NCBI GenBank assembly: GCA_973895155.1
Contig: OZ316892.1
Location: 1,068,917-1,132,916 of the forward strand
DNA length: 64,000 nucleotides
From: Marsupella aquatica
Taxonomy: Eukaryota > Plantae > Marchantiophyta
Direction: 5' to 3'
The position numbers and the translations under genes were made by a program. Shown in pieces: positions 1 to 42,679 of this stretch (position 1 is the stretch's first letter; the number at the start of each line of letters is the position of its first letter). The notes below the pieces were generated by a model that saw only the letters and a program-made list of their open reading frames with translations, was not told the DNA's origin and made no database searches.

Positions 1-26
1 TGGTGAAATGTAATAGAGAATCTCAC

Positions 27-3934: not shown

Positions 3935-4999
3935 TTAAGGTGGCATGTGATATTTCTTGACCCTAGAGCCATTTACCCTAGTAGGTAAATCTTCACCTTC
4001 TAAATCTGTTAATTGTAGTGATCCATTGGGAAAGACTTCTTTCACCAAGTATGGTCCTAACCACCGAGTATGCAACTTCCCCGGGAAAACCATGTGCCGA
4101 TTATCATATAATAAGACATAATTCCCTGATTCTATATCAACTTTCTTCATCTTCCGATTGTAACGAACAGTTCTCATTTGTTGTTGTTTATTTGTTTTGG
4201 TTAAAGCAAGGTATCTATCCTCTTCCAAATTTTCCAAAGCAGCAAGCCTGAGATCTTGATTGGTTTCAATGTTTAATCTATTAATGGAACTAATTCGGTG
4301 GGTAGGAAGATCAAACTCAATGGGCACAATACTTGCTAAGCCATAGACCAAGTAAAAAGGTGTGTGTTTAGTTGTGATCTTCTCTGCTGTCCGATATGCC
4401 CACAAGGCAGAATGGAGTTTTTGGTCCCAGTCAGTTTTGTGTGCGGACACAATCTTGGTTAAGATTCGCCCCATTAGCCCATTTGCCCTCTCCGTTAATC
4501 CATTTGCTTTGGGATTATAGGGAGTTGCTTTCCTGTGCTTGATTAAATATAAGTCAGTGATATGTTGAATAGTTTGGTTAAGAAAATGCAAACCTTGATC
4601 GCTGACCAATTCCAATGGGCATCCAAACCGGGTGATGATGTCTTCAAATAGAAACTTGGCGGCTGTTGCTGCATCATTTTTCTTAGTCGCTCGAGCTTCA
4701 ACCCATTTTGTGGCATAGTCGGTTGCTAAGATAATGTATCGAGCCCGTGTCCGAGCGACAGCAGGTTGGATAGGGCCTATGAAGTCAATTCCCCATTTTT
4801 CGAAAGGTGCCAATGATAGAATTGGGGTTAGTGGCCAATGAGAAGAGGAAGAGGGTCTGCCATACCTTTGGCAAGGATCACAAGCTTTGATATACTGATA
4901 GGTGTCCCTATGCATAGTCGGCCACCAGTATCCGGCCGCGTGAATCTTCTTGATAGTCACATTCACTGCATAATGCCCTCCAGCTTCTTCGGTGTGCAT
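3935..4999 (-). pseudogene. Ty3/Gypsy integrase (frameshifted from RNase H)
   Basis: H..GGH...WWPTM...CDPCQ zinc finger; WGIDFIGP, SDQG and NGLTER DDE core; WLGPY motif. Confidence 0.95.
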
Positions 5000-5873
5000 C
5001 TGAAATAACTCGAGAGATTTCTTTGGTTTCTAGACATCGTTTCAATTTCTGGTCAGGGGTGAGTTTATACAAGATCCCATTTTGCAAAGTGTAAGGGGAA
5101 ATCTTGTGGATAAAAACAGCTTGTTGCTCAAGGCTGAGATTCTTAGGAAGTGTTCCCGTGAGCAAAGCTTGGACTATATCAAAGTATAAGGATTCAGATC
5201 CTTCTATATGCCATAGGTGCTCATCCGGAAATACATCTGTTAAGGGAGTGACACTTTCTGGACCGGGGAGTCTAGATAAATAATCTGCATTTTCATGATG
5301 TTGGCCCGGTCTAACTACCACCTCAAAATCAAATTCTTGTAACAACAATACCCAACGAGCAATTCGTCCGGATAAATCTGGTTGGTTCACTAAGTACTTA
5401 AGAGCAGAGTGGTCGGTGTGGAAGATAGTTTTATACCCCAGGAGGTAATGCCTGAATTTTTTGCAAGAAAAAACCACTCCCAAGGCTTCTCGTTCAGTTA
5501 CTGAATAGTTCTTCTCTGCCACATTCATTTGTCGGCTGGCATAATAAATAGGGTGGTCCTTCTTATTGTCATCTTGTTGGCTTAGGACCGCTCCTATACA
5601 AAATGCTGACGCATCAATGTATACATGGAAATCTTTATTCCAATCAGGTGGAATTAAGATAGGTGCGGAAGTAAGTTTACTCTTGAGTTTCTCGAAGGCG
5701 TGTTGTCTCTCCTTTGTCCATTGGTATTCCACGTCTTTCTTTAGCAGTTGTGTTAAGGGCATGGCCAGATCTGCATAAAGGCGGATGAACCTCCGGTAGT
5801 AACCTACATAACCCAAGAAACCTCGAAGCTCTCTAAGGTTAGTGGGCGGCTTCAGATTTTCAATAACTCTCAC
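4908..5873 (-). pseudogene. Ty3/Gypsy RT connection / RNase H
   Basis: LRGFLGYVGYYRRFI, YIDASAFCIGAVLSQ, NYSVTEREALGVV, TDHSAL and NADYLSR motifs. Confidence 0.95.
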
Positions 5874-6867
5874 CTTCTCTTTGGGAAATTACATGTCCTA
5901 GAAGAATTCCCTCTTGCATCCCAATGAAACACTTATCTGGGTGTAAACAAAGTTGAGCCTCTCTACACTTCTGAAAAGTAAGTCTTAGCTTTGCAAGATG
6001 AGATTCGGCAGAGGAGAAAACACAAAAATCATCTATAAATATTTCTAGAAATCTATGAAGATACTCTTGGAATATGATCATCATAATCCTTTGGAATGTT
6101 CCAAGAGCGTTACACAATCCAAACGGCATTACATTAAAAGCATAAGTACCCCAATCTGTTGTAAAAGTGGTTTTATCCCTGTCTTCCTCCCTCACGGAAA
6201 CTTGGTTGTATCCTGAATACCCATCAAGGAAACTGAATAGAGCATGACCGGCTACTATGTCCAAAACGAGGTCAATAAATGGTAGAGGGTAGTGATCTTT
6301 CCTGGTAACCGCATTGAGCTTGCGATAATCTTGACACACACGGATCTTGACCTTGCCATCAGGTCCAGACTTCTTGGGAACAATGACAATGGGGGATACC
6401 CATTCGCTGCTGAGTACTGGAAAAATAAATCCTACTTCAGTTAGCTTATCTATCTCTTCTTTAACCATAATGAAGTACTTAGGGTTGAGTCGATACTGTC
6501 TTTGCCGGATTGGTACCGATCCTTCAAGAAGATCAATTCGGTGTTGTCCCAAATAAGGATGAATTCCCTTGATGTCCTTGTGGCTCCAGGCAAACACGTC
6601 TCGGTATTGCCTCAGCAGATCTATGTATTTTTCCCTCAAATCTCCTTGAATGTGTTTACTTATGTTAAGGAATTTGCCAGGTTCTATTTCAATTTTTTGA
6701 CAGGCTTTTGGATCCACAATCCCCTCCGTAAACCCCATAGGTTGAAATTCTTTATAGGTGTCAGCAGACTCATCAGTTGAACTTAGAATTTTACCAGTAG
6801 GTGCCTTACTTCCGTCGTTATTCTCAGAAAAAAATTCAGAAGATTTTGAGTTCCGGAAGTCCTCCAT
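5860..6867 (-). pseudogene. Ty3/Gypsy reverse transcriptase
   Basis: WVSPIVIVPKK, RVCQDYRKLN, LDGYSGYNQ, MPFGLCNA and FIDDF motifs. In frame with the upstream gag-PR ORF across two premature stops. Confidence 0.95.
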
Positions 6868-7014
6868 TTCTCCTTTTTGAGCCGGGTTCGGGTCCTTTAA
6901 TTGTCAATCCGGACTTTTGTTCGGGTTCCGGGTCTCATAGAATCCGGGTCCGGGTTGAGTCTCCCTTGTTAAATGGTGCAAGTTTGGGTGGACCAGGGAA
7001 CTAGCTCCGTTGGT

Positions 7015-9968
7015 TTAATTTAATGTTGGTGCTTCAAACTCAAAAATATCTAAAAATCTTACATCCTCTTCCCTTAGTTGCACTTTGGACTTCTTGCTCC
7101 TGGAAGGTGTTTCTTCCCCATCAGAAGATGTGATGGTGGACTCAGAGGTATATCCCTCATCTTCTTCTGTTTCTCCTTGGTGGGGTTCGTCTTCCCAACT
7201 TAGGATAACTCGAGGCGAACCAAATGAAAATTGCTTAGCATGCCAATTAACTTTAACTTGGGCCATGTACAGCCATGGTCGTCTAAGAAGAATTGGGAAG
7301 GAAGAAGGAGTGCTAGGTTGAATGATGATATAATCTAATTTGAAATTTCGCCCTCCAATTATAGTATCCACCTTTTTTATGGCTCCAGCGGGTATCACTC
7401 TGGTCTGGTCGGCCATTCTCAAAATTTTTGGAGTAGGATCAAACTTAAGGAATCCCAACTCTGTTGCAGTAGCCTCTGTCATGATATTTACACTAGAGCC
7501 ATCATCAACGGGTACCTTGGTGATCACACAACCTGCAATTTGAACTTCAATTTCTGGGGGTCCATAGTCCTTTGATTCAATTTGCATACACTGGTGAACA
7601 CTGGGCAATTTGAAGGATCTTCGCCTAGAAGAAACTAGAGTCTTCATTTGTTTCCAAAAATTTGGATTGGAGCGCAATAACTCCCCAAAGGTAATGTTGG
7701 CTTTTAAACCACTAACATCCTCAACAATATTGTAAGGAGAACGAAGGCCATTAATTCTTAGTCGAACAGGATCTACTTCAAATTGAACTTTCTTAAGAGG
7801 GATATTGTCACCAGGGCTTTGCTTCTTTCCTACCATAGGACCTTCTGCTACTGGTGCTGATTCTGCCATTAATTCTTCTTGGAGTATCTCCTTTACTTCC
7901 TTTGAAATGTCTGGCAGAAAATACTTAGGGTCATAGCGGTCATATGCCGCATCATCCTTGTCCTCCGCCAGAGCTACCAATCCTTTAGGTTTGTCTTGCT
8001 TCTTTTCAGATTTCTTTCGAGGTTCCTTTTGTAATTCCTCCTTTTCTTGTGTCTTTTTGGACCTGGTGGTTGCAAAAACATTCAGGATCCTGTCTCTATT
8101 GCGCATTCTTAGATTTGGCTGTCCTTTTTCTTCCTCCTTTATTAAATGTTCACAATCACGGTCATAGGTAATACCCGCCAATGGTTGTAACCGTATGGGA
8201 TCCTGCCATTTCTTCACTTCTGGAAGCTGGTCGGGAGTCACTTCTTCACTTTGATCTACAAGCCGACATTGTTCAAAATGGGGGTCCGAATCTTCTTCTA
8301 GGTAAACCAACCTGACGGCTGAGTCTGTTTTTATTGGTGTAGCAGGCGGGTCCTTCACATATCGTACCATCATCTTGGCCTTGGGTGGTTGGGGACATTC
8401 CAATGGAAGATGCCCTTCTTGTCCACAATTACCACACATTGGTGAATACCCCGTATCCCTCTTTGGCCATGGGCATGAAGGGGAATAATGATCCTTTGAT
8501 CCACAATTCCAACACTCACCCCTATTCATTTGATTTCGTGGGGGATATCCTCCTGGTGGTGCCATAGGAGGTTTATATACTGGCCTATTGAAATTGGAGA
8601 TTTGTCGTGGCGGTGGAAAGTATTGAACAGGAGGGGGAGCTGATGGTCCGGTCTGGATTTGATACGCCACCTCAGGGAACACAGTCTGGTAAGAAGGGTC
8701 CTCATAATTCCCTTCTACCATTCCTTCATCATTGAAGACATAATTGACTCGGGAGGCCGTGGGACACTCATGGGGATAATGCCCCATCTTTCTACAAAGG
8801 GAACACCAAACATTGTGTCTTAAAACTGGTGGTGTTTTCCTTGGACCTTTTATAGAAGCTAAATTCACAGACAGACTTTTCATTTCCTTAGTGAGTGAGG
8901 ACAACATTCCTTTCATTTTTTCCACCTCCTTCTTTGCTTTATTGGTTGTGTCCACCTTCTTAGGTTTTATGTCCTTATCCGAGTCCGAGTTCGAAGATGA
9001 GTCATCTGAGTCGTTACTGGAGGTGCTAGAAGAGTCGTCACTATTGGAATCCGAAGAGGAAGTCTCAGACGAAGAGGATTCGTCTTTCCTCTTACTTTTC
9101 TTCTTTCCCTTCTTCTTCCCTTTCTTCTGTTTCGCTTTTTCCCGTCTCAGCTCCTTCACCAACTGTTTCCTCTGGCTCATTTCTGAATCAACATAAGATT
9201 GGGCCTTGGAATAGGCTCTAATGTAGCAGGTTCTGATCTCCGCACAAAATGATTCATCTTTGGATACAATCCTTGGATAAACCATTCCTTTACCAAGTGA
9301 GCGCCAGGTGTGGGGGTTACTCTCCGAGCCAACTTACTTACTCGTTGCATATAGGCTCTAAGGGAGTCTCCTTTCTTCATTGCAACAGAACTGAGTCGAG
9401 TGAAGGCCCGAGAAGTAGCTCCTTCTTCCTTGAATTCATTAAGAAATTCAGTCTTTACAGTGGCCCAATCTATTTTGTCCGGCAATCCTGAATACCAGGT
9501 TCTTGCTTCTCCTTTCATTAATCCACCAAAGATTTTAGCTTTCATATCGGGTGTGTCATCGCCATTTGAAGTGGCAATGGCTTCAAAGTCTTCAATCCAA
9601 GTATCAGCATCTGCCTTCTTTCCACGGAAGTTTTCGTACTTAACTCTTCCTCTACTCGTCATGGTGGAGGTAGGATTTCTTTGGGAGGAAGTACTACTTA
9701 CAGAATTCACAATTGCACGCGGTGTACTAGGTGGAACACTTGAATTGCTAGTACCGCTAATTGTTGGAGGGCTTGGAGTCACAAGTGATTCTGGATCAGT
9801 GGTGTTATATTCGTCCTCCGAATATGCTTTATTTAGGTCAACTTCATTATCTCCACCCGATTCCTCTGGATGTTGTTCCTCAATTTCTGGAGCCAGAAGT
9901 AACAGGACAACGACAATCCGGGAAGGAAACATCATCCAAAATACCATCCGAATAATCGTCCGACTCAT
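7015..9968 (-). pseudogene. Ty3/Gypsy gag (three CCHC zinc knuckles) plus aspartic protease; frameshift near 9250
   Basis: Capsid-like WIEDFE...GEARTWY; knuckles CSLCRKMGHYPHEC, CWNCGSKDHYSPSC and CGNCGQEGHLPLEC; protease VPVDDGSSVNIM...ILLRRPWL. Confidence 0.9.
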
Positions 9969-10027
9969 GACAGGCTGTCATTTCAAAAATTGCACAAAAA
10001 TCACAAGGGAACACCTAAAACACCAAA

Positions 10028-10576: not shown

Positions 10577-10627
10577 TTCATGAATTCATGAAGGGTTACG
10601 ACCTTCTGGAATTCATGAATTCATGAA
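10577..10627. repeat. Two copies of the perfect 16-bp palindrome TTCATGAATTCATGAA
   Basis: Copies at 10577-10592 and 10612-10627. Confidence 0.9.
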
Positions 10628-11049
10628 CCCAAAAATTGAAAATTGCTAAGTTTGGGACAAATTGGATTGTTAGTTGCTGGGAGTATGGGCGTGCATTTGC
10701 AAAGCGTGAAGGGAAAGGAAGCTCGGCAAAGAGCTATGGTGGGCTGATGTTTGGTGCTGTGGAAAGCTCTTCCCTTAGTGATTGGTATGGCCTGAATAGG
10801 AATTGAATTGAGTCTTCGGTTGAATCCCTAACTGGAACCAAAACTCAGGGCCGGACCAACATCTCGTGCAGCTATCTAATCTTGCAGTGGAATGGAAGCT
10901 CGCAGTGGAATGGAATAGCGTGACTATTGAGGCGTAGATCAATTGTGGAAGGGAGGATCAATCGTGGAAGGGAGGGGTTCAAGAAATTTGGTTAGGTATT
11001 GTTGGCTTGCAAGTTTATGTTGGGGAGATTTTTGAGTGAGCGCAACAGG

Positions 11050-11400
11050 CAATTGATTTCGGGGAGGGATTGTTGAAGGCCTGGGAGTTCTAGCAATAGT
11101 TTTTGGGGAGGAGAAATTGTCGAAGGCTGGGGGAGGGAGGAGAAATTGTCAAAGACTAGGGGAGGGAGGCAAAATTATCGAAGGCCGGGGGAGTGAGCAG
11201 AAATTGTCGAAGGCCGAGGGAGAAATTGTCAAAGCGCCAGGGGAGAAGCAATTGTCAAAGGCCGGGGGAGAGAAATAGTCGAAGGCTAGGGGGAGAGAAA
11301 TAGTCGAAGGCGCAGGGAGGAGAATTTTTTAAGGTCGGGGGAGGGGGCAGTAGTCAAAGGCCAGGGGAGGGAGCAACAGTTGTAGGCCAAGGGAGGAGCA
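11050..11400 (+). repeat. Degenerate G-rich tandem repeat (~24-31 bp, core GAGAAATTGTCGAAGGCNGGGG)
   Basis: About 10 variable copies. May encode the low-complexity N-terminus (LSKAGGEK-like) of the downstream gene. Confidence 0.8.
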
Positions 11401-14400
11401 AGCAACGCCGGTGGAAGGGAAGAACCACCGGCAAAAGAGAGGCGTGCAAAGAAAGGAGAATTAAAAGGGGGCGAGACAATCGGGAGGCCTTTGGAATCGG
11501 GACCAAGAGAGGGACGAACAACATTAAGTTGGGAGGGATCAATCGGCTCGGGCATTGGCCAGGGAGGTGGAGGAGATAAGCTAAGCCAAAATCAGGGAGA
11601 AAAATACCTGTGATACACTTTTGAGCGGGAATAATTGTCTAGGCTCGGGCGCTGCAGATTCAACTTCCAACTCCACTATTAAGGTAAGAACCTTGCTTCA
11701 TGAAATCATGAACTTGAATTCTACAACTGAACTTGCCAAACAAACAGGGCTAACTTTGAAATGTTGGACTTGATTTCAGGAAGTTAGAATTGTTGAACCA
11801 AAATCACAGGAGAAGGTGTTAGACTCAATTTTTGGAAACTCTTCTTGGACAATATCATTGGGGACAGAATCGTGGAAGAAGTCTTTTTTGATGTTCTGGA
11901 GACCTTGCCTTTTGGAGGTCTTGGTTGGGTGAATTATGGCTGGATTGATGTCTTTTGACAAGGGGGCAATGTCCTCAATATGCTTATCACAACAAAGGAG
12001 ACGTCTACACTGATTGTTGTTGACATTGAGAGATTTTCTGGAAGAGCTGCGCATTGTTACTTGGCTAATGACATTGAGATGATTAGTCAGAATATGAAGA
12101 ATCTGTCGGCAGAAGAAAGCTATGATGAGATTGCACAGCTCATTGCTGGTTATGTGTTTGAACATCACACCAGCACATTGAAGAGTGCAATTTGAAAGTC
12201 TAGGGAGATACTTTGAAAAGCAATAGAGAAGAGTGCTAATGCCCGTCCACCAAAGTCTGGTCCTTCTTTTGGACCTTCTGGATCTCGTCCGAGCTCTATC
12301 CCGGCAAGAAAGATGGTTGTTACATCTCCAATATCTATTGGTGGTTCCGGGGGTGGTTCACAAATTGCAAGATCGCAAGAGGGGACAACTGTGACTGGAG
12401 GATCAGCATAGGGCACTGCCGGTACTCGAACTTCATCAAACAAACGTGGACCAGAGGGTTCTCAAAGTGCAAGACCAAGTCCACCAAAATCCAAGAAGCA
12501 GACATTGGAAAAAGTCTCCACTCATTTGGAGCATAAGGCTCAATCTATGTCCATGGATGCTCGAGTGGTCTACCAGGAAGGTATTTTGATGAGGTGTGGA
12601 GTTCAAGAGGAGATAATCACAATTGACATTGGACAACTTCACCCACCTGTTCGTGAGAAATTTTTGGAGTTGCCAGTGTACTAAGTAAGGCATATCCAAC
12701 CATACTTTCTTACACAATTGACCACAAGGATGAAAGCAACTGGAGCTAGTCCACTAGTAGCACCTTTTGTTCTCTTGGTTGATCCCAATGAGTGCCCAAC
12801 TCGAGGTGATTTTGATTTCTAAAAAAAGAATGATTACCACTATTACGTGATTGGGGGAAATCATTTTGCTTGTGCAAAGGCAGACCTGGCATTACAATTT
12901 CCCAACAACAAGTCATACAAGAGAGTGCAATCTTGGATCTTTGCAGGCTTGTCTATCCAGGAAGCAAGGAACTTAGCTTGGAGTCATAATATAGACTCTG
13001 AATTTCATCAACAGATGAGCACCATCCAAAGAGTGAATTACATTCACATGCGATTTGTGGAGAATGGATCATCATCAAATGTTGATTTCAAGGAGTGTGT
13101 CACTGAAATCAATCTAAAGGACTGGGGTGAACGTAAAGATTCTGAGGTTCTGAATGCCAATGATAATTTATTTCAGTTGATATTTCGTAAGGATCTTGTT
13201 TGGTCTTTCATACGACACATCTTTGACAGATGGGAGAATTATGAAATAAAAGGACAGAAAGGAGATAAGACCAAGAAAAAGATATCCAAGTCTGGAGATG
13301 CACAAATGCTATGTGAGGATATGAAGTTGACTGAGTGGAGACACATGCAAGCATTGAAAGATCCAGACATGATGTGTCCAGTGCTACAAAGGGTTTTGGC
13401 AAAGGAACTATCTCTTCAAGAGATGGGACAGGAATTTCAACGACACAAATTCCAAATGCAAGTGCAAAAAACATTTCTTACTTGTCTTCACGAAGATAGT
13501 TGGAAGAATTGCAAAACCAAGTACCCAGAACACTGCACTGATAATGTGCTGAAGAATTTTGTTCCTGTCTTCCAGACTTGGGTAAGTTTATTTGAGATAA
13601 TTGATTGAGCATTTGTTTTACAATTTTATAGTTGAGTATGTAGGAATCTCATACCCCAATTATTTCTCTCAGAAAGATAGCAGCTCCCAAAAAAAGAAGG
13701 GAGAGAGTGAATAAAGCAAAGAGTTGAAGTCCTTCCCAGATAAGTTCAATGCGCATATTGCACAAGCACAGAACTGGTGGGCAATGAAGACATCTTGCCG
13801 AGAGACCCAGGGAAGTGAACTCCACCCTAATGCTTTTGAGCATCCACAGTTTGGGGATGTGTACTATGATATCTTTACACATGATGCTCAACGGTTGCAC
13901 AAGGTAGTCCCATCACGAGCTTACACATTGGCTTTGGCAGATATTCTTTATGGGTTTGAAATGACTACTTGTCTTCATCAAGACAATGTTGGATGGGGTG
14001 TGGAAGAGATGACCAAGATGGTTCAGTGTTTCAAGGTTGTCACCAAGGCCAATCTTTGGCGAATTATCATTCATCATAGTATTGACTAGTACGATGCTAT
14101 CAAGACTGTCTTGAAAGCTGAGTGTAATGGTTATTTCCAAAATTGTATTTGGTAAGAAATATTTCAAAACATGAATATCTTTTTTTGGTGTTCATGATTT
14201 CATGATGTTGGATTTTTAAACAAATGCATAATGAAAGTTTTGGTTTTTGCAGGGTGAAAGACAATGTTAAGAATGTAGGAGGTGCAAGGCTTAACAACAA
14301 TTTAGAGTGTTTTACCATTGGCTTTCACAGTCAGGATGGGAAACGATCTTTGGAGCATTTCAATTTTGAGACTAATGAGTCTCAAAATAATGTGGTTGTG

Positions 14401-14811
14401 TGTCCAGCTGTGACCAATAAGTTGAAACACAATGGGGATAATAACATGGTGAACTTTAACCAGAAGCCAAGGGTATTATTGGATTGGGAAGTTACTCATT
14501 TTAGCTAGGTTGGAGACTGGGTGCTAAATATTTGGTCAGGGTCAGGCACAGGATTGTCTTCCTCTTTGGCACAAGGAAGACATTGTGTTGCTGTAGAGAT
14601 TGATGAGCGCCAGAGCAGTGTCTTGAAAGGGAGAATTCTAAACCTGGTGGACAACATTGAGGAAGATGACGGCAAGGGCATGGTGGATTCAGATGTTGAT
14701 GTTGAAGAGACCATTCTACCAATACCAGAGATAGGAGTTGAAGAGGAGGAAATCATTGGACTTGACTCTTCAGGAGTTGTAGCAAGTGTTGAGGAAACAA
14801 GAGATGCTTAG
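11100..14811 (+). pseudogene. Intron-containing ParB/Srx-like domain + beta-class N4-cytosine/N6-adenine DNA methyltransferase fusion (start approximate)
   Basis: ParB-like region ~12610-12990: IITIDIGQLHPP...LTTRMKATG..PFVLLVD..YYVIGGNH..A...LSIQEARNLAWSHN. MTase: LADILYG (DPPY-equivalent, 13940-13951), CIWVKDN...NNLECF, then NQKPRVLL..FS*VGDWVLNIWSGSGTGLSSSLAQGRHCVAVEID. GT-AG introns at 13582-13672 and 14152-14252 restore the frame; another is probable at 11684-11779. Multiple premature stops and a few frameshifts. Confidence 0.85.
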
Positions 14812-15221
14812 ATGAGGATATTTCTGTAAGACTTTTTACGGTTGTTTTAGCTACAAAGAACTAGACTTAAATAATGGCAAGTTTTGAGATGTCAATGGCC
14901 TTTGAGCCTAGACTATGATATTTATACTTGTTTTGAGAGGTCTATTCTATTAAAATCAGGTTTTGAATATATTTTTGTCTCAAACAGTGGTGTAAACTCT
15001 AGTTTAAAAATGCAAAGGGTGAATGTTAGTAAAATATGCTGATTTATTGCCTGTTTTAGTACTCAATTTCTCAAAATCATGATTTTTTGGAAAAAGGAAT
15101 TAAGGCCTTAGACCCATCCTTTAAGGTTTTGTGTTCTATGTGAAACTTGGCATTGTCATCCATAGTATCATGGAAATCAACTTCCATGTAATCACCTAGC
15201 ACCCTTGTAGACCTGGATTCC

Positions 15222-15566
15222 TGTTAGGATTTACTCTTAGGTCTAGAGTTACGACTGTACCATAGTTAAGGCTAACCTTAGTTGCAGACTTGGTTAGGTT
15301 ACTCATGCTGTGCTCACTCTATAACCAAGTGGTGTTTGCTTGGAGAGATGGAACTCAGGCTCATTCTTACGGAGCTAGTTGAGAGATAGAGAGAGCTTGT
15401 GCTGTTGATGCTTGGTATGGCCGGTCGGCCTAGAGTGCAGTAAAGCTCTTGTGTGTTCCCATGGACATAGCCTCATGTGGAGGTGAACCACGTATCTCTC
15501 TGTGTCGACTCTTGTGCGTTGGATGGTTCATGGGCTTGCCGTTGCGATTGTCGTTGATTCTCATCA
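15222..15566 (+). repeat. 5' LTR of Copia-A
   Basis: Matches 21085-21429 with about 10 substitutions counted by eye. Confidence 0.95.
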
Positions 15567-16572
15567 ATTGGTATCAGAGCATGCCTGGGAGGAGACGAGG
15601 TCTTTTTTGTGACGGTTTTCCAGCGTTCATTGTCGGTGTTACATTCAGAGTTTCATCGCATGAAACTTGAATGTGTGTGGCTGAACGGATAGATTAGTGA
15701 GAGGGCTTTCTAATGGTGGTTAGAACTCGCTGATCGGTATCCGTGGTGCGGAGGAATCAAAGTTTGCGTTGATCTGGAGTTTTTTTGTGTTTGACGGTAG
15801 TTTGGGGGAGAAACCAGAGATCGTTTTTTCAACGGTTTGAGTTGTGCGGTGCGGGAGGCATCACATGTTATAGCTCATGTTGGAGGTTAAAGCGAGCTGT
15901 TGATTTTGGTAGTTGAGTTGTTGTCGAGTGGTTACCGAGTGCGTCTTGACGAGTGAAGGAGACGTTCAGATTTTTTCACAGGCTATGGAGCTTGTTTTCA
16001 TCTGAACCGGGTTACTCGTCGTCACGTCCATCTTGGAGGAAGAAACGCAAAGTGCTATGGCTCAATGTTTTGATCGCGTCAAGGCGGTCATTTTGAGTCC
16101 GGGATTGGCACTTGACGCGGAGTGAGTGTGACACGATGGAAGATTTTTTCTCTGCTGAGCTCGCAGATTGTGCCGGTGCAATTTGGCAACTTTTCCCCAT
16201 CAGCGGTCATCATTTTTACTCATGGAATTGGCAACAGCAAGCAACGTTGGATGTTGGCAAATTGTGTTTCCTACGACAACTTTGCGCACCACGAAGCTCA
16301 GGTGAGGTGAGGGCACAAGGAAAACGACAAAGTTAGTGAACAGTAACTTTGTTCGGGAATTGCGGCGGGATTTTCGTAGCAATAGGGTTTTAGAGGGCGA
16401 CTTAAAGGGCGCCTCGCTCCAAGGGCAACCCAAGGGAGCCTCGCTCCAAGGGTGACCCGGAGTGACCAGGGGGAGCCTCGTGGACTCCTAGCCTCGTGGG
16501 CTACGCGGCGGTGATTAGTTTTGAGTTTTTTAAGAAGTTGTGAAAAATGTCATTTTTTCATGATTTTCTCAT

Positions 16573-19500
16573 ATGAGTGATTCAGAGGAGATTTTTGAAG
16601 ATGTGGAACTTGAAGCACGAGGATCATCACGGCGGTTTGAGGTGGAGAGAGAGGAGAGAGAGGAGCAGGAGGAAGAGCACGTGACACTGGTACCATCACC
16701 GGTGCGACGAGTGGTGGAGGAAGCTGTTCTACTACCGGAGCTCACGGTAGTGCCAAAGAAGAAGATGGGTACGTTCAAGCTTGGGGGACCCAAGTATGAA
16801 GTGACAAAGTATGATGGGCGCTCTGACTACTTGCTTTGGGAGAAGCAGGTGAAGGGAGTGCTCTATGCTTTAGGGATGGGCCAACTGCTAAGCCCTCATG
16901 AAGACGATGTTGATGAGAAACAATGGGACCGCATGCAGGAGCAAGGAGTGTGGTGTGTTACACTCTATCTCATGCCTCCCATCATCAAGCAGTTGGGTGC
17001 ACATAAGGACTGCATGTCCTTAGTTGCGGAATTGCAGAGCAAGTATCATCGCAAGGAGTTGTCGAACCGGCTCTATACTTCCTACAAACTGATGAGTTTC
17101 AGGATGAAGGAATCCGGTACGAAGTTGCAGGACCATGTGGATGCTTTCAACGACATGGTCGTTGACTTGGAAAACCTTGGGGAGACTTTGAATGATGAGC
17201 CGAAGGCTCTACAGCTTCTCAGTTCATTGCCTCCATCTTACCAATCCCTATCATGGGTGTTGTTGCATCGTGATAGGGATACCATTTCATACAATGACGT
17301 GGTAAGTTCTCTGCTTAGTGATGATCTTCAGCAGAAGATGCACATCACGTCACAGCCTTCATCCTCTGGTGCTGCCCTCAATATTAATCGTGGGAGGAGT
17401 ATGCAGCGACCAACTGGGGACCATAGAACCCAGGTTAGATCTAAATCCAGATCCAAGTCCAGAGGCAAATCCCCTCAGAGAAGGCAGGTGACATGCTGGA
17501 AGTGCAACCAAGTTGGACACTTCAAGCGAGACTGTAAGGGAAAGGCAGTTGAATCTTCATCGGCAAATGTGGCTAGGGTTGATTGGAGATGCTGATTTAC
17601 TCAATGATGAGTATTATTATGAAGCCAGGGGTATGCCCTGTGCACGTCATCTAGAATAGCAGATGATGTGTGGATTCTTGATTGTGCTTGCTCTTTTTAC
17701 ATTTGTTACATTCGAGAGTTTTTCAGTTCTTACTCTATTTCAAAAGGTTCAGTTCTGATGGGAAATGATCACTCTTGTCAAATTGAGGGTATTGGGTCTG
17801 TGAAGATTCAAATGTTTGATGACACTGTGCGCACAGTGTCCGGAGTCAGGTATGTACCTGGCATGCGTAAGAATCTAATTTCACTGGGTGTGTTGAATTC
17901 AAATGGTCATCAATGGATCGTTATTGATGATGAACTTCAAGTCAGGTCGGGAGAGACAGTGATCTTGAAGGGGAGCAAACATAATAATTTGTATGTGTTG
18001 CAGGGCAATACTGTATGTGAAGAGGTCAATGTAACCAAGTCTCACGAGGAGATGACTCATCTGTGGCATTCACGGCTAGGCCACATGAGTGAGAAGGGTT
18101 TGGCTATCTTACGGAAGAATGGACTCATTTCTAATTTGCAATCTTGTAAATTAGAGTTCTGTGAGCATTGCATTCTTGGAAAGCAGCATCGTCGTGCTTT
18201 CGGTGTTGGAACACATCGTTCTAAGGCGGTTCTTGAGTACATACATAGTGACGTGTGGGGTCCATCCTCGACTTCCTCACTCTGGAAAGTTGTACTATGT
18301 ATCATTTATTGATGATTACTCAAGATTTGTGTGGATTTATTTCATGACGCATAAGTCTGATGTCTTATCCATTTTTAAGAAGTGGAAGGCCCAGGTGGAG
18401 AATCAGACTAGAAACACGGTCACGTGTTTGGATACAAGGGTGAAGAGTCTGAGGTCAGACAACGGCGGGGAGTACACTTCAGTGGAATTTGAAGAGTACT
18501 ATTCAGAACAGGGGATAATTCGCCATCTCACCACAGTTTATACTCCACAACAGAATGGTGTCACTGGGAGGCTTAATCGAACACTATTGGAGCGGTCACG
18601 GAGTATGTTGAGCCAATCAAGTTTACCACAAGAATTTTGGGCAGAAACTGTCAATACCACAGCTTATTTGGTAAATATTTCTCCTTCTAGTGCTATCAAT
18701 TTCAAAACGCTGTTTGAGATGCGCTATAAGTGGCAAGCAGACTATCATGGGTTGGTAGTTTTTGGAAGTGATGCATATGCTCTCACACCAAAGCAGAATA
18801 GGACCAAGTTGGATCCTACATCCAAGAAATGTGTTTTTCTTGGGTACCAGAGTGGTGTGAAAGCCTATAGGCTATGGGATCCTATTACCTGTAAGCTCGT
18901 TCTCAGTAGGGATGTTTCCTTCAATGAATCCAGATTATTGAATGAGGGCGAGAATACTCAGGTCTCCCATACTGACAAAGGAAAATCTCTTATCTCGGAT
19001 CTCGTTGAGGGGGAGATTGGTCATGAGGTGCATGATCGAAGAGAAGGAGTTGCTCCAATTATGGAGCTGGTTCCTGTGCCAGAGGAACCAGAGGAGTTTG
19101 TTGATGGTGGTGAGCAGCAAGTGGATGCTACTAAGCTTCAAATATGTACCAGCTAACGCAGATCAACCGGAGTCATCGGCTAGAAGAACATCTGGTCGCA
19201 CTGTACGCGCTCCACCAAGGTATGGACAGTGGGTTGATTCATCTCAGTTGCAAGAGGAGGATTTTGTTACTGAAGATGAGGGTGATGCGTTGATACTAGA
19301 AGAAGGGGAACCTTCTTCATTTCATGAGGCAAGTGCTTCTAAGGAGAAGTAGGAGTGGACTACAACAATGCAAACGGAGATGCAGTCACTGAAGGACAAC
19401 AAAACTTGGGAGCTTGTCAAGCTGCCTGAGGGACAGCAAGTGGTGGACAACAAGTGGATATACAAGCTGAAGGATCAATCCACGGGAGGTGGATTGAAGG

Positions 19501-20894
19501 TCTACAAGGCTAGGTTGGTAGCCAAGGGATTCACACAGGAAAAAAATGTGGATTACAATGAGGTCTTCTCACCAGTTGCTAAGTACTCAACAATACGCCT
19601 ATTGTGTGTGCTTGTTGTAATGTTTGGTCTGCTGCTAGATCAGATGGATATTGTCATAGCCTTCCTCTATGGCACCTTGGAAGAGGTGATCTTCATGAGA
19701 CAGCCACTAGGTTTTGTGAAGAGAGGGCAAGAGGATTTGGTTTGCAGATTGCTCAGATCCTTGTACGGGTTGAAGCAATCACCAAGACAGTGGAATAAGC
19801 GGTTTGATGATTGGATTTGTGCGCAAGGCTTTCATAGGAGTGTGTTTGACCCTTGTGTATATCTTAAACCAGTGAAGAATGTTGTCTTTGGGTTCATTGT
19901 TTTAGTACTTTATGTGGATGACATGCTTATTGCGACCAAGGATAGGTCTGAGATTGTTAAGCTCAAGGCACTGCTTAGTGCAGAGTTTAAGATGAAGGAC
20001 TTAGGGCCAGCTAAGAGGATTTTGGGTATGGAGATCACTAGGGACTTGGAGGCTGGCAAGCTATGGTTGACACAAGGCAGTTATGCGAGGAAGGTAATTG
20101 CAAGGTTCAACATGGGGGATAGTAAGCCAGTGAATACCCCATTGGCTCCACACTTCAAGTTGTCATCAGCTTTCTGTCCTACGGATGAGATAGAGAAGGG
20201 GCTGATGTCAAAAGTTCCTTATGACAAGGCAGTGTGGAGTCTCATGCATTTGATGACTTGCACTAGACCTGATCTTGCCATGGCTATGGACAAGGTGAGC
20301 AAGTACATGTCGAATCCAGGGAAGGTACACTGGGAAGCAGTGAAGTGGATTATTCAGTACTTGAAGGGTACCGTGGATCATGGTCTATTGTTTGATGCAC
20401 ATGCTGATAATGCTAGATCATTGATGGGCTATGTAGATGCTGACTATGCACAGGATCTGGATCGGAGGAGGTCAACAACAGGTTATGTGTTCACATTAGG
20501 AGGTGGATGCATAAGTTGGAGGTCTACTATGCAGAAGTGTATTGCTCAGTCTACTACAAAAGCGGAGTATGTTGCAGCAGCGAAAGCAACAAAGGAAGCG
20601 ATTTGGTTGGATAGACTTATCACTGAGATGAGATTGCCACAGGGGAATGTGAAGCTCCATTATGATAGTCAGAGTGCGCTCCATTTTGCTGTGAACCAGG
20701 TAATGGATAGTAGAGTGAAGCATATCGATGTCAGGTACCATTTTATCAGGCAAGTTGTGTTTGATAATCAGTTTGAGCTAGTCAAGATTGACGGTAAACT
20801 CAACTCGGCTGACGCTTTTACCAAAGTAATTTCTTTGGAGAGTTTTTCTAGACATTGTGATGCGTTGCAGGTTTTGCAATTGCCTCACAAGTAG
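16573..20894 (+). pseudogene. Copia-A gag-pol (gag, PR, IN, RT, RNase H) with stops and frameshifts
   Basis: CWKCNQVGHFKRDC, WILDCACS, WHSRLGH..CEHC, SDNGGEY, YKARLVAKG, LYVDDML, YVDADYA and KHIDVRYHF motifs. Confidence 0.95.
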
Positions 20895-21084
20895 GGTTAC
20901 TTAACATTTGTGTAGATACTGAGATATGCTCTTGCTCATTCCTTGTATAGGCTACGGCTTAGTTCTGGTCTACTCTCGTATAAAGAGGGAAAAACCAGTT
21001 TGGTTTTTCTTTCCAGAACTTCCCGCTGAGCAATCATATAGGGTGCAGTCTTTACCCTCCCTAGACCAGAGTCAAGGGGGAGAT

Positions 21085-21429
21085 TGTTAGGATTTACTCT
21101 TAGGTCTAGAGTTACGACTGTACCATAGTTAAGGCTAACCTTAGTTGCAGACTTGGTTAGGTTAGTCATGCTGTGCACACTCTATAACCAAGTGGTGTTT
21201 GCTTGGAGAGATGGAACTCAGGCTCATTCTTACGGAGCTAGTTGAGAGATAGAGAGAGCTTGTGCTGTGGATGCTTGGTATGGCCGGTCGGCCTAGAGTG
21301 CAGTAAAGCTCTTGTGTATTCCCGTGGACGTAGCCTTATGTGGAGGTGAACCACGTATCTCTCTGTGTTGATTCTTGTGCGTTGGATGGTTCATGGGCTT
21401 GCCGTTGCGATTGTCGTCGATTCTCATCA
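21085..21429 (+). repeat. 3' LTR of Copia-A
   Basis: Direct repeat of 15222-15566, followed by the TSD. Confidence 0.95.
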
Positions 21430-21434
21430 ATTCC

Positions 21435-22198
21435 TTGTGGAGGATTGTCCTCTATGCAATCCTGGTATCATTTGGGTAAAAAAACACTTGTTCTATCTGC
21501 CGTACACCATACGCCATGGACCAATATCCCCGCCAATATTCCACGTTTCTCTACCCTTCACCCCTCTCTTGAGGTGTTTGGCTGTCTCCGGTCCCTCATC
21601 CCTGCACCATGCACGAGGGCACCTACGACATTGTCTGGATAAATTCGCAATTGCCATCTCGATCGATACTCCTTGCAAACATCACAATAATGCCTTGGGC
21701 ATATTAGAGCAACGGGATGTGCATCTGAGTCTCCGTGTACCCCATGAGAGGCAACTCCCTTGCCCTCAGTATGGTCCGCAGACAACCCATGTGATAAAAA
21801 GAAAAGCAGTCATATATCCTATGCACGCTGGACCACAAGTGGCTCATCCTCGGACTCATTTGTAGTGGGCTTTAGGGTTTGGCCAAGTAGTCCACAAGCA
21901 AAGCAGCGACCTTTGTTTTGCTGATAGAGGTCACAAAGCCACTCCTTGGCCCAATCATGCCCTCTAGAAATGACAACACTTGTGCACTCAGGCCCATGGC
22001 CATCAGGCTCCTCAGGATCCTGCTCATCGGCTAAGTAATGGAAATGATGGCTGCAAGGCCCATCGCAGAACAAAACAATACCTCCCTCATCACATTCAAA
22101 ACAACAAGGGGGATCCATGCGAAGGTGCTCTTTATGGGCAAACCTTGGATCCAGCCAGGCAGCAGTAGCCTTGCCATGCCCGATGTGCAATGTACTAA
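21435..22198 (-). pseudogene. EDM2/NSD-like tandem PHD-finger protein, frameshifted and interrupted near its 3' end by Copia-A
   Basis: CFECDEGGIVLFCDGPCSHHFH..C..WLC; CFACGLLG...DCFSFYHMGC (shifted frame)...ICPRHYCDVC; QCRRCPRAWC. Acceptor ctctctcacag| at ~22199. Confidence 0.75.
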
Positions 22199-24074
22199 CT
22201 GTGAGAGAGCAAAAAGTCCATTGAATTAGGAGATGTCCTGTCCACCTAAGTCTCACGGAGTACAATAACTTGGCAAGTACTGCTTGTTGTGTGCTCTGCA
22301 CAAAGAGCAAAAAGTTAAACATGGTTTGTTGAGGATTGACTCTCTCAAAATGTGTTGACTAACACTGGCTATCTATTTGTCTTCTATCAAAGTTGTTGAG
22401 AAATAAACAAAGTAAAAGAGATTGACCTAGCTTACATGCTCAATCAAGAGATTGAGAAAATAGGGGTCATTCAATTGCAGTGGAATGGAAGGACAGCAAA
22501 GTGGCGGCAATCAGGGCCCACCATTTTGGGACCCTTTGTTCTGATAGGCCACCTGTCCCCTACCAGCCTGCCTGAAAATTTGAAATTAAAAAATTTCCCT
22601 TCAGCCAATCAGAAAGTGCCATTCTTTTTCTCCTTTTTTTTCTGACTCATTCCTTATGATTTTTGGGTGCTGTTTTCTGTAAGCCGTAGATCTTTGTAAG
22701 ATCTTCTAAATGAACGATAGATTGCCAACTTTCATTGACAAACAAGATCAATCTGAGCTGTGATTGAAGGCCGTGGACAAGTGCCTGTTCAAAAACACAA
22801 CTAAATCGCGTTTGTGGTGTGCCAACTCTGGGTCACTTAGAGTATAAGTACACTTAGTTGTGGTTTAAGAATGTATTTGCGGTCCTTTGGTACAAAATCA
22901 TCACATCATTATACAACAAAATTACATGCATGCCAAAACTAATCTTACTTGGTTGGGAAGTGTGGCCTAAAACAACCCACATCCAAAATATCCATCATAA
23001 CAACTCCTTCCCGGTGTTGGAAATAGAGCTGAAGCTAAGCGAAAGGACCCTGGCACGGGATTTGGCTAAATATAAATCATAATCCCTAGGAAATACTACA
23101 CCATCAATTTATGTGATGAGAACATGGTCATTGGTGTGAAAACACCATGAAACAAATTAAAATCTGCCAAAACTAAACTCAGTAGGGACTCACATGAAAT
23201 TGTCAGTTCATTAGATCTCTGTTGCACTTGCAAGTCAGGAATATGTTACCTGGCTTGACAAGTGTTACTACTTTTGAGCCAATGTGACACTAGGAGACCC
23301 ATTCAGCAATGGCCTGAGCATTCTGGCATTCCTTCAATTGTTACACGAATACTTTGCTTTGCTGGTCAAAGTCAACATCATGGTTATCACAAAATAGTTA
23401 TCAAAATCAAGACTTTGTGATGTACATGCAACCAAATTCTCAAGCTAAGAGAGTCCAAATTCAGTCCGTGACAAGTCCATTTGAAACCAGATCAATGTTT
23501 GATCAAATGAATTGTATTAGTTTGTTGAGTTCAAGTTCCAATCATAGCTAGCAGTTGTCTTGAGTGCAAAAGGCCGCAAATCTCCCTCCAGGTGCCAATT
23601 ACCCTTTAACAAAGAGGTTATTAAGTTAGTTATTAGTCATTGCTTTGTATACGAAAAAAACTTTTTTCAGCTGAGCCTGCAGCCTCCGATCAACCATGAA
23701 CCGAACTATTAGGTGCCATGGATTTCTGGATTTGTGCCTAAACTTGCGAGATAGTTACAAATTAAGTGTTGATTCGGCTAGTTTTCTTATGATAGTCAAA
23801 GATCCGGTCAGTGCCATAACTTTTATGAGTTTTCATTATATTTGAGTTAGAGGAGGACCTTATCTTGTAAAACTTGGTTTAGACACCCTAATGTGATAAT
23901 ACAACATGGTTCTTCTGGTTAGGCATGTACCATGGTTCTAACCAGACACATAAATATGCACTCTGTTGACTTCCTGTAGTCACTTTTTCATCTGAACCGC
24001 ATAAAGGCCTTTTACAGTTTTGAACTCTCATGATGGTTATGGACAGTCAAGTGAAGGGTGCCCGAACACAAACC

Positions 24075-24310
24075 AGCCAAAGGAGGTAGTAAACATTGGA
24101 AGTGGGCTGAACAGCTAACGGCATTCAAGAAGGCTACTGTAGGGAGCAAATGGGGCATGGTTTTTTTTGGTACCTGTTGTGTGCCATGGTTCGGCCAAAG
24201 GAGATAATAAGAATTGGAATTGGGATGGACAGCTAACTGGCCTCAAGAAGGATACTGTAGGCAGGAAATGGGGCATGGTTCTTTTCGTACCTGTGTACCA
24301 TGGTTCGAAC
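24075..24310 (+). repeat. Two diverged direct copies of a ~118-bp unit
   Basis: gccaaaggag...acagctaac...tcaagaagg.tactgtagg...aaatggggcatggtt...ccatggttcg occurs twice in tandem. Confidence 0.8.
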
Positions 24311-25692
24311 CAGACATTGTTGAGACCGATCTCATGGTTAAATTCGGATCGTCAGGACCGGGCGGATTGATAAGAGGTGACCACACAGGACTGTATTATT
24401 ATTACGACTTCCGTACGATAAATGCAGAGGCTGGGGCCGCCACTCTATAACCAGTTGACCAGTCTACGACTGTACCCGAAAGTACTCTTTCACTGCGGCC
24501 ACAAGTTCGTAGCGGCCATAGTGGGCATCATTATGCCCCAGGTTCGAACCCGGATAGTCTCAGGTTCAGATTCCTCGTCAAATCTATTGGAATCGAGGGT
24601 CGACATGGTCAGAGATCTCGTTAAACACAGTCCCGAGCGTCGATCTTGGCGAAGGTAACCAGGTGGTTGAGGGAGGGGGTGATGAGGTGGACATTATCGA
24701 GGGACGCAAGATTAAATTAACATCACTCTGAGTTAATTAATGCTTGTTGGCGTAATTGCTCGCTTGCTTTGGGATGCGTTTGCCGCGAAGAGAGAAGTTC
24801 ACTGCGCAATTGACGTGTGAGACACATGGGCATTGGAGATTGGAATTACGGTAATCGGTGATGCGCAATTAATGTCATTTCAGCCGATGGCCGCCTCCCC
24901 TGTTTCTGTTCACTAGTAATCTTGAATGCACAATTACAGCAGCACACCCACTCCTCAGTACAGCTTTGCCGTGGTGCCGTGGTGGTACTCTGCCGTACTT
25001 CGCCTAACGATGTATCCCCTATGCGCTCCAGGTCGAGCATTCGATCGTCTCCTCCTTTTCTTACTCTTTCCCCACTTTTGGATTCGGAGATTCGCGGTGC
25101 CTCCAGCGTTGCGCACTTGTTCTGATTGATTGATTGATTGATTGATATTGAGGAGTTTCTGAGTTCTTTCGCGGCTGGCTGGGTGCGTCATGGTGGTAGA
25201 AATCTTTGTTTTGATTCTCGCAGATCTTCGTGTGACTTTCTGCCTTCCTACCTAGAACTGGAGCTCTGTTCCTAATCCCCATTGCACCCCATTGCAGAAG
25301 CTTTGGTCCCTCGTTCGTGTCGTAAGACCGCGGGACTACAGTGAACTGATGAGCGCAGAATCTGTTTCCTTTATGTTAAGGAACTACAGTGACAGCACAG
25401 CCGAAGTGAATGCATAGAATGGTTTACACAGTGATCGTGCAATTGGATTGAGTTCGGGAAGCGAGCTTGGATTTTGCGGGGAACTGCGGACAGGCTGACG
25501 TACTAGGGTGAGGAGACCATGTGCAAGGGATGCATTTTGCTCTATGACTCAAGCATTTGGACAGGTTGAATCGTCAGGATCGCGGCTGTTGGTTTCCGGT
25601 GCGGAGTGGACTCTGTTCGTTGCGAGGTGCTGATTTGGCACTTGATTGATTACCAGCCGAACGTTGTCGCCAGTTCTGGCTGCGGAGGAATC

Positions 25693-27204
25693 ATGGCCTT
25701 TCGACCTTCTGCCGTGATTGGGTTGATATGGCATCATCCGATCGTATCACTCTTTGTGGTCCTTCTCTTCACTCCTCCACTGTTCCCAATCGTGGTCTAC
25801 TTTTCGCCTCTTCTGATTTCCACTGCTCTGTTTGTTCTTGCGATGATCAGCATGGAATCCGATCACGCTAACGATCCTAGTCCGTACAGCAGTGACATTC
25901 CTTACAGCAATAGTGTATGGATTGAGGAAGTTGAGTTAGATGGTCCGTTACTTGATGGGGAAAGAGTGCCAAAGAGACTCAAGGCTTCGTCCAGCGATGG
26001 GAGGTGGTTTGATAAGGTCAAGAACTGGGAAGGGACAGGCCGGGCGTGGGTGGAAAGTGTTCTTAATCAAGAGGCTAGGAAAAGTGTTGATGACATTACG
26101 TTCTCCAGAGATGATTCCATCCCTCTGCTTGACAAAGCGAGAGGATTCTTTGTCGAGGATCTTCGCAAACGGTCTCGAGACGATGAGCCCAAATCCAGCA
26201 AACCGTCTGACGGGGCCCAAGCCACGATTGTTGCCAACGATTCTGCACCTAGCTTGCCTGTACAGAAGCCAGAGGGTGTGGAGGATTCTGCCCGTCCAGT
26301 GTCAGAGGGCAGCGGGAAGTCTAGCAGCAAAACTACTCCTGGTTTAGTTCCTGATCTAGAGTCTGAAGACGAACTCATCGAGATTGCACCAGCGAGCATT
26401 CCTGCTTCTCCTCTCTTCAGAAAGAAATCGCTACCGAAAGCAGATGCAACTGTCAACGTCGCAGCGGACCTCGCGAAGAAGTCCGAAGCCTCCTCATCAG
26501 AAGCTCCGTCTAAAACTGTAGAATCAATTGGTGGGTCAGTGCCAGGTACGGATTCCGAGGATGGAGACAAGATTGCTCATCTCGTAGGTTCTATCAACGA
26601 GAAGGATAACTCTACCCCGGTTGTCGAGCAGAAGTTCGTTAAACTTGAACCTGCGGATGTTGAGAAAAGTTCAAGTAGCGGGGAGATTGCAACCCCTATA
26701 AATGTGTCGGTATCCAAGGAGAGTAATTCAGTTGCTGAGAAGACGGCTCAAGGTTCGGGCGGGGAGATTATCCCCGAAATTCAAGCTGTCGCCTCGGGAT
26801 TGAGTCCGACCAATGCAACCGATCGGAATCTCGCTGAGAAGTCCCAGACCAAGGTCACGGCACAGGGTGACGGACGAAAATCCGGCTTCCAACCTAAAGA
26901 GACCAAGTCTGCTGGAGAATTGCTTGGCCCTGCCAGGCAGGGTCGAGGATCGTATGGTTTGGGAACCCCTTCAGCTGCTGTAGCACTTTCTGAGAAACTA
27001 AAAGTCCCACTGGAAGACATTATCTCTCTTCTCGCTGGTGATTGCAAGGAGAATGCCTCAAATGAAGGTCCCCCTCATGTGCAAGTATCGTCCTCTTCGG
27101 AGTCCACAACCTCTCAGGAGGAAGAGTGGTCCAGTTCCGATGGGGAGCCTTCTGCACCGCCCAAAGCAGTGAGAGGTCCAGAATCAGCCGAGAAGGATCC
27201 TTGA
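25693..27204 (+). CDS. Intronless uncharacterised protein with N-terminal transmembrane hairpin and long disordered Ser/Glu/Lys-rich tail (~503 aa)
   Basis: Intact long ORF, first ATG at 25693. HHPIVSLFVVLLF..FPIVVYFSPLLISTALFVLAMIS resembles the N-terminus of a plant membrane-anchored family (HP...SP.L..TA). Confidence 0.75.
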   Translation: MAFRPSAVIGLIWHHPIVSLFVVLLFTPPLFPIVVYFSPLLISTALFVLAMISMESDHANDPSPYSSDIPYSNSVWIEEVELDGPLLDGERVPKRLKASSSDGRWFDKVKNWEGTGRAWVESVLNQEARKSVDDITFSRDDSIPLLDKARGFFVEDLRKRSRDDEPKSSKPSDGAQATIVANDSAPSLPVQKPEGVEDSARPVSEGSGKSSSKTTPGLVPDLESEDELIEIAPASIPASPLFRKKSLPKADATVNVAADLAKKSEASSSEAPSKTVESIGGSVPGTDSEDGDKIAHLVGSINEKDNSTPVVEQKFVKLEPADVEKSSSSGEIATPINVSVSKESNSVAEKTAQGSGGEIIPEIQAVASGLSPTNATDRNLAEKSQTKVTAQGDGRKSGFQPKETKSAGELLGPARQGRGSYGLGTPSAAVALSEKLKVPLEDIISLLAGDCKENASNEGPPHVQVSSSSESTTSQEEEWSSSDGEPSAPPKAVRGPESAEKDP

Positions 27205-29682: not shown

Positions 29683-29698
29683 CAAACAGAGGATAGAG

Positions 29699-42612: not shown

Positions 42613-42679
42613 ATATGTTACTTAGTTACATATTGTATATCACCTGACTCATTGTGTGAACTTGAGTCAAGGTGGAGAT

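Follow-up and report, generated by a model that had tools for sequence, protein, structure and literature searches.

A predicted ParB-methylase gene with parS-like palindromes, beside an EDM2-type PHD gene, in a decayed locus of the liverwort Marsupella aquatica

In this study, we describe a decayed locus in a 64,000-nt stretch of Marsupella aquatica DNA (assembly GCA_973895155.1, contig OZ316892.1, positions 1,068,917-1,132,916 of the forward strand), the whole of which is called the window here and supplies all coordinates unless another locus is named. Two degenerate genes lie tail-to-tail in it, one for a DNA methyltransferase (MTase) with a predicted ParB-like part and the other for a triple-PHD protein related to plant EDM2. 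The explanation that we tentatively favour is a dead multi-gene mobile element, composed of a ParB-fold, CcrM/DpnA-like predicted methylase core and an accessory EDM2-derived PHD cargo. The MTase gene itself is probably element-borne, as suggested by its large set of relatives, the conservation of a divergent neighbour, and that of its cis-palindromes. A first-pass annotation, made from the sequence alone, had proposed a mobile two-gene module of histone-mark reader and DNA methylase; the palindrome and a further gene, gene X, extend beyond that account, and the interest of the locus now lies mainly in the ParB-methylase family and its palindrome.

The ParB-methylase gene and its family

The MTase gene runs on the plus strand from about 11790 to its stop codon at 14809-14811 and is interrupted by two GT-AG introns. 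Exon 1 (11790-13581, start approximate) encodes, in order, an N-terminal beta/alpha domain, a disordered linker, a predicted ParB/Srx fold (about 12600-12990, with a GGNH motif at 12853-12864), and a helical, KorB/Noc-like part predicted to bind DNA. Intron 1 (13582-13672), the position of which is the same in three related loci (L001, L002, and L003), is followed by exon 2 (13673-14151) with amino-MTase motif IV at 13940-13951, intron 2 (14152-14252), and exon 3 (14253-14811), which holds a degenerate S-adenosylmethionine-binding motif I at about 14527-14550, an acidic tail, and the stop. Catalytic motif IV is N-terminal to motif I, the order of beta-class enzymes (PF01555 type), and the Pfam domain N6_N4_Mtase matches the window MTase at E 1.1e-5 with 25.9 bits, under the 26.7 cut-off. 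The motifs of the window copy are no longer intact: motif IV reads DILY, motif I is degenerate, and the frame contains nine in-frame stops from 11902 onward, along with a frameshift near 11890. The related loci L001-L003 keep both DIPY and DLCxGxxT. Among them, the proportion of nonsynonymous differences (pN) is 0.11-0.13 and that of synonymous differences (pS) 0.64-0.73, and the MTase family has therefore been subject to purifying selection; in the window copy, pN is 0.27-0.28 and CpG loss is heavy.

A search with exon 1 returned, among 883 candidates, 11 clusters (52-63% identity) that together comprise 81 members (51-64%), most of them located on contigs only a few kb long, and 10 of the 11 cluster representatives reach the same intron site. 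A profile search extended the family to 445 representatives at E<=0.001, and N6_N4_Mtase was found in 8 of the 30 family representatives scanned against Pfam. The members with a named source belong to Calypogeia, Riccia, Adiantum, Ginkgo, Chara, and Ptychodera; as read from these sequences, the family ranges over Chara, liverworts, a fern, Ginkgo, and an animal. A quick tree of 24 rows places the window MTase beside Calypogeia (SH 86), which by itself would make a liverwort or another bryophyte the likely host. Within the family, the relative P0120 has a sterile alpha motif (SAM) domain ahead of the helical part, and the N-terminal domain of L001 (about 2040-2260) and L002 is apparently split by an additional intron, absent from the window copy and P0008-type relatives, which appears to reflect gain or loss within the family.

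The ParB assignment comes from a structural model of the relative P0008, for which a Foldseek search gave Noc/ParB matches at E 2e-5 to 7e-4, with 11 chains at E<=0.001. The model aligns with PadC over 95 residues (Z 9.2, rmsd 2.9) and, through residues 309-592, with KorB over 186 (Z 7.3, rmsd 14.1), and its predicted fold is that of the ParB/Srx superfamily. Fungal DUF3723 (0.96) and ParB_N (0.91) are among the closest Atlas clusters. Regarding chemistry, the solved MTases nearest to family relatives are DpnA, CcrM, RsrI, and MboIIA, and together with the DIPY motif they indicate that the methylase probably writes N6-methyladenine (6mA) rather than N4-methylcytosine (4mC). The N-terminal domain, folded alone, reaches a predicted local distance difference test score (pLDDT) of 85. 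Weak Foldseek rows had raised the idea that it is an RFTS-type reader as in DNMT1 or EDM2, which was not established: the comparison with RFTS gave E 0.08 and a TM score of 0.21, PH-like folds reached Z up to 4.5, and neither a profile match to EDM2 N-termini, nor a PDB sequence match, nor an Atlas score of 0.9 or above was obtained for this domain.

A palindrome clustered around the gene

The exact palindrome TCATG-N4-CATGA occurs four times in the window, always within 10578-14205, where 0.11 occurrences are expected for the whole 64 kb (0/100 shuffles). Two perfect, parS-like copies (10578-10591 and 10613-10626) lie upstream of the gene, a third (11698-11711) stands just 5′ of the MTase coding start, and the fourth (14192-14205) is located within intron 2. 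Enrichment is limited to the exact form, since five copies against 3.7 expected are found once one mismatch is allowed. The intron 2 palindrome is present in all four copies of the gene (the window, L001, L002, and L003), in an intron that is otherwise diverged, and it is retained although silent sites are near-saturated. The form CATG-N4-CATG is counted six times in L001 and three times in L002 (0/500 simulations each) and once in L003 (41/500), and among CATG-CATG spacings of 0-8 no spacing other than 4 was seen in these loci. It was a comparison between the window and L001 that first brought the palindrome to light, and L002 and L003 represent independent checks.

In bacterial-type partition loci of the ParB kind, parS is a 14-16-bp palindrome clustered near its ParB gene. 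By this likeness, the palindrome described here is rather likely to be the binding site of the ParB-methylase. Also upstream of the MTase gene is a G-rich tandem array with a 25-29-bp unit (11105-11401, plus strand), the 14-nt core of which recurs upstream of the L002 gene, beside a palindrome (one of the three loci, exact match only).

The PHD gene and the Copia-A insertion

The two genes are now separated by Copia-A, a later insertion on the plus strand (15222-21429) with 345-bp long terminal repeats (LTRs; 15222-15566 and 21085-21429, TG...CA) that differ from each other at 10 of 345 positions. It is flanked by the target-site duplication (TSD) ATTCC at 15217-15221 and 21430-21434, and excision there leaves the MTase and PHD genes convergent and tail-to-tail, an arrangement put forward in the first-pass annotation and verified here by coordinates. 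The PHD gene, which is intronless, is on the minus strand; it runs from a likely ATG at 22177 to the insertion (21430-22177) and, with Copia-A removed, onward to about 15196.

The annotation had further drawn one minus-strand frame across the junction as the tail of the PHD gene. That frame does stay open across the junction and closes at 15077-15079, which leaves 265 bp to the MTase stop, but another stop at 21452-21454, seven codons ahead of the junction, separates it from the PHD. The frame containing the last PHD finger passes one premature stop, crosses the junction for six codons, and ends at 15196-15198, which gives a stop-to-stop gap between the genes of 384 bp rather than ~270. When both frames were compared with homologue tails (10 correctly cut tails, 3 of 13 having been left out because they were cut at the wrong finger), the last-finger frame was better in 10 of 10 at offset 0 and still better in 8 of 10 at the rival frame's best offset, with absolute scores that are low. 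The reading frame of the PHD gene thus likely ends at 15196-15198 and not at 15077-15079, and 15196-15221 (minus strand) would hold its last codons and stop plus the left TSD copy.

Both genes had been described as decayed, and they are: beside the nine stops and the frameshift of the MTase gene, the PHD gene has about five frameshifts and has lost zinc ligands. CpG depletion spans the two genes and extends to about 24300, with an observed/expected ratio of 0.09-0.42 versus 0.78-0.93 farther right.

The Cys/His spacing of the PHD gene is that of the composite EDM2/NSD-type fingers, in agreement with the first description, and the gene encodes a stand-alone triple-PHD module of this type. Its relatives, among 33 candidates, comprise two clusters with four sequences. 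The window gene and the relatives P0214 and P0215 are PHD-only frames of 226-247 aa, to which further exons may belong. The 19 longer hits without exception have a PHD of the EDM2/NSD type, the best five being liverwort proteins that end in the module. In a tree of 22 rows, the window PHD groups with both PHD-only proteins at 100/100 support, and the long branch of this clade attaches to liverwort PHD-terminal paralogues in a placement that is unsure owing to that length and an arbitrary root. The third finger of this stand-alone clade has changed ligands. Identity is 53-62% within the clade versus 24-32% to EDM2-family proteins. Given a clade of its own and this gap in identity, the PHD gene is therefore EDM2-derived but no recent processed fragment of host EDM2, the alternative that the first-pass annotation had itself named.

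Linkage of the two genes

A 14-mer, GCAGTGGAATGGAA, is present in two copies at 10884-10915 and in a third at 22477-22490 (all plus strand), which places the third about 300 bp 5′ of the PHD start; these three copies, against 0.05 expected, stand only upstream of the MTase and PHD genes, for a motif chosen post hoc. In a targeted comparison, a 17-nt stretch common to both upstream regions has E=0.018, and no repeat boundary was found in the spacer between the genes. Taken together, the 384-bp gap, the shared CpG depletion, and the 14-mer tip the balance slightly towards a PHD gene carried on the same element as the MTase gene.

Linkage in other copies, the central claim of the pair, is unproven. 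The loci L001 and L002 stop inside exon 3, and only L003 extends past the methylase stop. No PHD is fused to the methylase in the 224 other proteins of a set of 229, the N6_N4_Mtase domain is listed in none of the 19 longer PHD hits, metagenome scans for related loci returned none and then three, and viral and prokaryote-genome scans returned none among 91, 22, and 20 candidate stretches, respectively. The two families also differ in size, with two clusters and four sequences for the PHD versus 11 clusters and 81 sequences for the MTase, which further weakens the two-gene module, in a comparison made uneven by a PHD query that is shorter than the MTase query and frameshifted. Complex prediction, run with the MTase N-terminal domain and the PHD only, gave a median of 0.00, which speaks neither for nor against an interaction. 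Direct coupling of reader and writer is speculation and seems unlikely.

Gene X and the extent of the unit

About 1 kb upstream of the methylase, L001 has a divergent open reading frame (ORF), gene X, with no Pfam match and, in 230 residues, no gag match. The start of gene X, its first ~21 codons, matches the window at 9915-9981 (minus strand): the window and L001 636-761 have 59% DNA identity over 126 nt, the best in the whole window (0/500 shuffles), and the protein alignment scores 56 (0/2000 shuffles). A likely continuation is located at 1-224 (minus strand) and runs off the left window edge; there, the match to L001 ORF residues 143-188 is weak (score 47, 11/2000 shuffles, best of three frames, low complexity). 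Between the two parts lies a Gypsy-type LTR element (225-9914, minus strand), recognised by its ORFs, which from their translations we take to encode gag, protease, reverse transcriptase, RNase H, and integrase, and by a putative 3′ LTR at 225-649 (TGTTG...CAACA). Neither a 5′ LTR nor a second LTR copy was found in the window, and the gag frame begins almost directly after the gene X start, with no LTR between. Because the L001 ORF resembles the window sequence to either side of the Gypsy, the latter is likely a nested insertion that has lost its 5′ end. Two extra ORFs follow its integrase (2237-3094 and 1359-2117), without convincing Pfam matches, and two palindromes fall within the gene X coding frame of L001 (283-359).

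With gene X common to the window and L001, the unit, on these alignments, is larger than two genes. That it is a mobile element we infer from such sequence features; 25 read-through frames of the flanks, examined for transposase remnants, gave no Pfam hits.

A possible mechanism

If the locus is a dead element of the kind proposed, its own TCATG-N4-CATGA palindromes would serve as binding sites for the ParB/helical part acting as a dimer, in the way that parS serves ParB, and the tethered enzyme would write 6mA on the element, which would thereby be marked as self. Self-marking of this kind would likely resist host silencing or license mobilisation, akin to VANC at VANDAL intron motifs. As for the PHD-only protein, its likely origin is capture from an EDM2 paralogue of the liverwort type, and it would act as an adaptor or decoy that attaches to the histone H3 tails of silenced chromatin. 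A broader and more doubtful proposition is that of an undescribed element class with self-recognition in the bacterial manner, present in seed-free plants and, more distantly, animals, in which a ParB-methylase acting on the element's own parS-like palindromes writes 6mA there, and an EDM2 PHD reader, captured in one lineage, serves for aiming at, or shielding from, chromatin with dimethylated lysine 9 of histone H3 (H3K9me2).

Alternative explanations

Several observations weigh against a dead element with PHD cargo. The window is full of nested repeats, a setting in which dead elements of separate origin often come to lie side by side; for the proposed element, the left end of which is beyond the window, neither terminal repeats nor a TSD nor a transposase could be detected. 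The ParB CTPase clamp is defined by the arginine of a GxxR motif, which is missing here: GGNH[S/T/G/F] and variants are found in 23 of the 23 rows shown of the 24-row tree, and CTP clamping is doubtful because GGNHS lacks this arginine. No palindrome occurs in 21430-25000, around the PHD gene. In the ~500 bp past the methylase stop, L003 has no similarity to the window spacer or the PHD; instead, a 69-codon open frame on its minus strand (1777-1986) runs in from the contig end, stops ~300 bp from the methylase stop, and is possibly a different convergent neighbour. A second linked MTase-PHD locus was not found, and the fixed two-gene module of the first-pass annotation was accordingly not borne out.

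Such points bear most directly on the possibility that the two genes are chance neighbours, the methylase carried by one mobile element and the PHD by another or by a retroposed host family. This account, which is doubtful but has to be taken seriously, would agree with the want of a linked second copy, the different DNA downstream of L003, the greater rarity of PHD relatives, the absence of the palindrome near the PHD, the presence of introns in the MTase gene and not in the PHD gene, and at least four LTR elements in a window where dead elements pile up. It leaves to coincidence that two uncommon chromatin-related genes stand 384 bp apart with no repeat boundary between, and that a 14-mer is common only to both upstream regions (post hoc, E ~0.02). 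Improbable, in our judgement, is the fixed two-gene module in its original form, in which the PHD steers the methylase to H3K9me2 chromatin as a split analogue of EDM2 or N4CMT. The adjacency of both genes fits it, as does the occurrence of a reader and a methylase on one element in retrotransposons (bioRxiv 10.64898/2026.05.21.726589), but neither the 224 proteins nor the 19 longer PHD hits contain a fusion, the methylase has a likely targeting device of its own (the ParB part and the palindrome), the PHD seems missing beside L003, and ligands are altered in the third finger of the stand-alone clade. A very improbable third account would make the whole locus one giant Gypsy-type LTR element, with the PHD in sense orientation and its introns lost, the MTase antisense with its introns kept, and gene X as the start of gag. 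Orientation and intron pattern agree, the gene X start runs almost straight into the gag frame, and Gypsy elements with methylases have been described (PMC5890265); nevertheless, the putative 3′ LTR (225-649) has no partner to the right of the PHD, the divergent ORF of L001 has no gag match in its 230 residues, and the resemblance of that ORF to DNA on both Gypsy sides points to a nested insertion.

Comparison with known systems

The window methylase family shares with DpnA, CcrM, M.RsrI, and M.MboIIA (PF01555) the placement of motif IV before motif I and the D-x-P-Y motif. Unlike bacterial beta-class MTases, it has a spliced eukaryotic gene, an extra N-terminal domain, and a whole fused ParB/Srx fold, and it differs from bacterial beta-class N6-adenine MTases in its streptophyte and animal range. 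Compared with ParB, Noc, and KorB, the likeness lies in the predicted fold of the N-domain and helical part and in a palindrome clustered near the own gene, whereas GGNHS/T in place of GxxR, the methylase fusion, and the lack of any ParA partner seen in the window family set it apart. ParB-linked methylases have been reported from phage loci and, with another MTase group, from chlorophytes and chytrids (PMC4738411); these belong to other clades, and the window family is not named in the part of that paper considered here.

EDM2 and liverwort PHD-terminal paralogues (e.g., MPTK1_1g03210), the best long hits, have a three-finger NSD-type module and tail like those of the window PHD. EDM2 also has N-terminal and methyltransferase-like domains, both absent from the window frame, which is ~230 aa long, intronless, and only 24-32% identical. 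The comparison with rotifer N4CMT made in the first-pass annotation fails on motif, the methylase family having DIPY and N4CMT SPPY. N4CMT and Marchantia MpDN4MT1 are described as SPPY 4mC writers (PMC8885841; bioRxiv 10.1101/2021.02.12.428880); they resemble the window family as bacterial-type amino-methyltransferases in eukaryotes, with a histone reader in N4CMT, but are domesticated host genes, in contrast to a DIPY family in which the methylase is joined to a ParB part and the PHD is encoded separately.

Among elements, DNMTs occur in retrotransposons (PMC5890265), and DAM-LTRs/EpiLTRs carry a methylase with a chromatin reader, DAM being reported absent from streptophyte LTRs (bioRxiv 10.64898/2026.05.21.726589); the portion of the latter text used here mentions neither ParB nor PF01555. 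DAM is another methylase group, situated inside a retroelement ORF, which does not hold for the window methylase: its gene is of the PF01555 type, stands apart, is spliced, and runs antisense to the nearby Gypsy. The motifs to which VANC proteins bind lie in VANDAL's own introns and upstream arrays (PMC5735166), and those in the introns resemble the palindromes here, although VANC removes 5-methylcytosine and is no methylase. DUF3723, the look-alike domain, is named as a gene of Starships (PMC10128009), giant fungal elements whose recombinase was not seen in the window. As we see it, the window element would work like a self-marking element enzyme and is not a member of the EDM2, N4CMT, or DAM-LTR groups. 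In the open-access literature, supplements aside, no published description of the methylase family, its palindrome, or the PHD pair was found.

Implications

Land plants are thought to be without abundant 6mA and its usual writer (bioRxiv 10.64898/2026.05.21.726589). An element-borne ParB-methylase, if confirmed, would represent a local, sequence-addressed 6mA system in plants and a new route of anti-silencing or self-marking beside VANC, and it would offer a testable protein-site pair, for which relatives with intact motifs exist (L002 and L003). The PHD pairing, if true, would mean that an element captured a host heterochromatin reader; should the pairing fail, the findings on the methylase family and its palindrome would be unaffected.

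Other features of the window

Further nested Copia elements occupy 30581-43611, where a direct repeat (30581-30880 and 43312-43611) is identical over 300 nt and one Copia, on the opposite strand, is related to Copia-A at 74-80%. Long inverted repeats at 53240-54864 and 59377-61023 (82-93%), with internal 240-bp units, may be read as a foldback or Mutator-like element, and tandem arrays with 45-bp and ~100-bp units are found at 29462-30009. Long host-gene-like ORFs are present at 25570-27204 and 47219-48823, without convincing Pfam matches, and at 51277-52035, the last presumably resembling a seven-helix PAQR-type membrane protein. A tRNA-Arg gene is located at 44938-45011.

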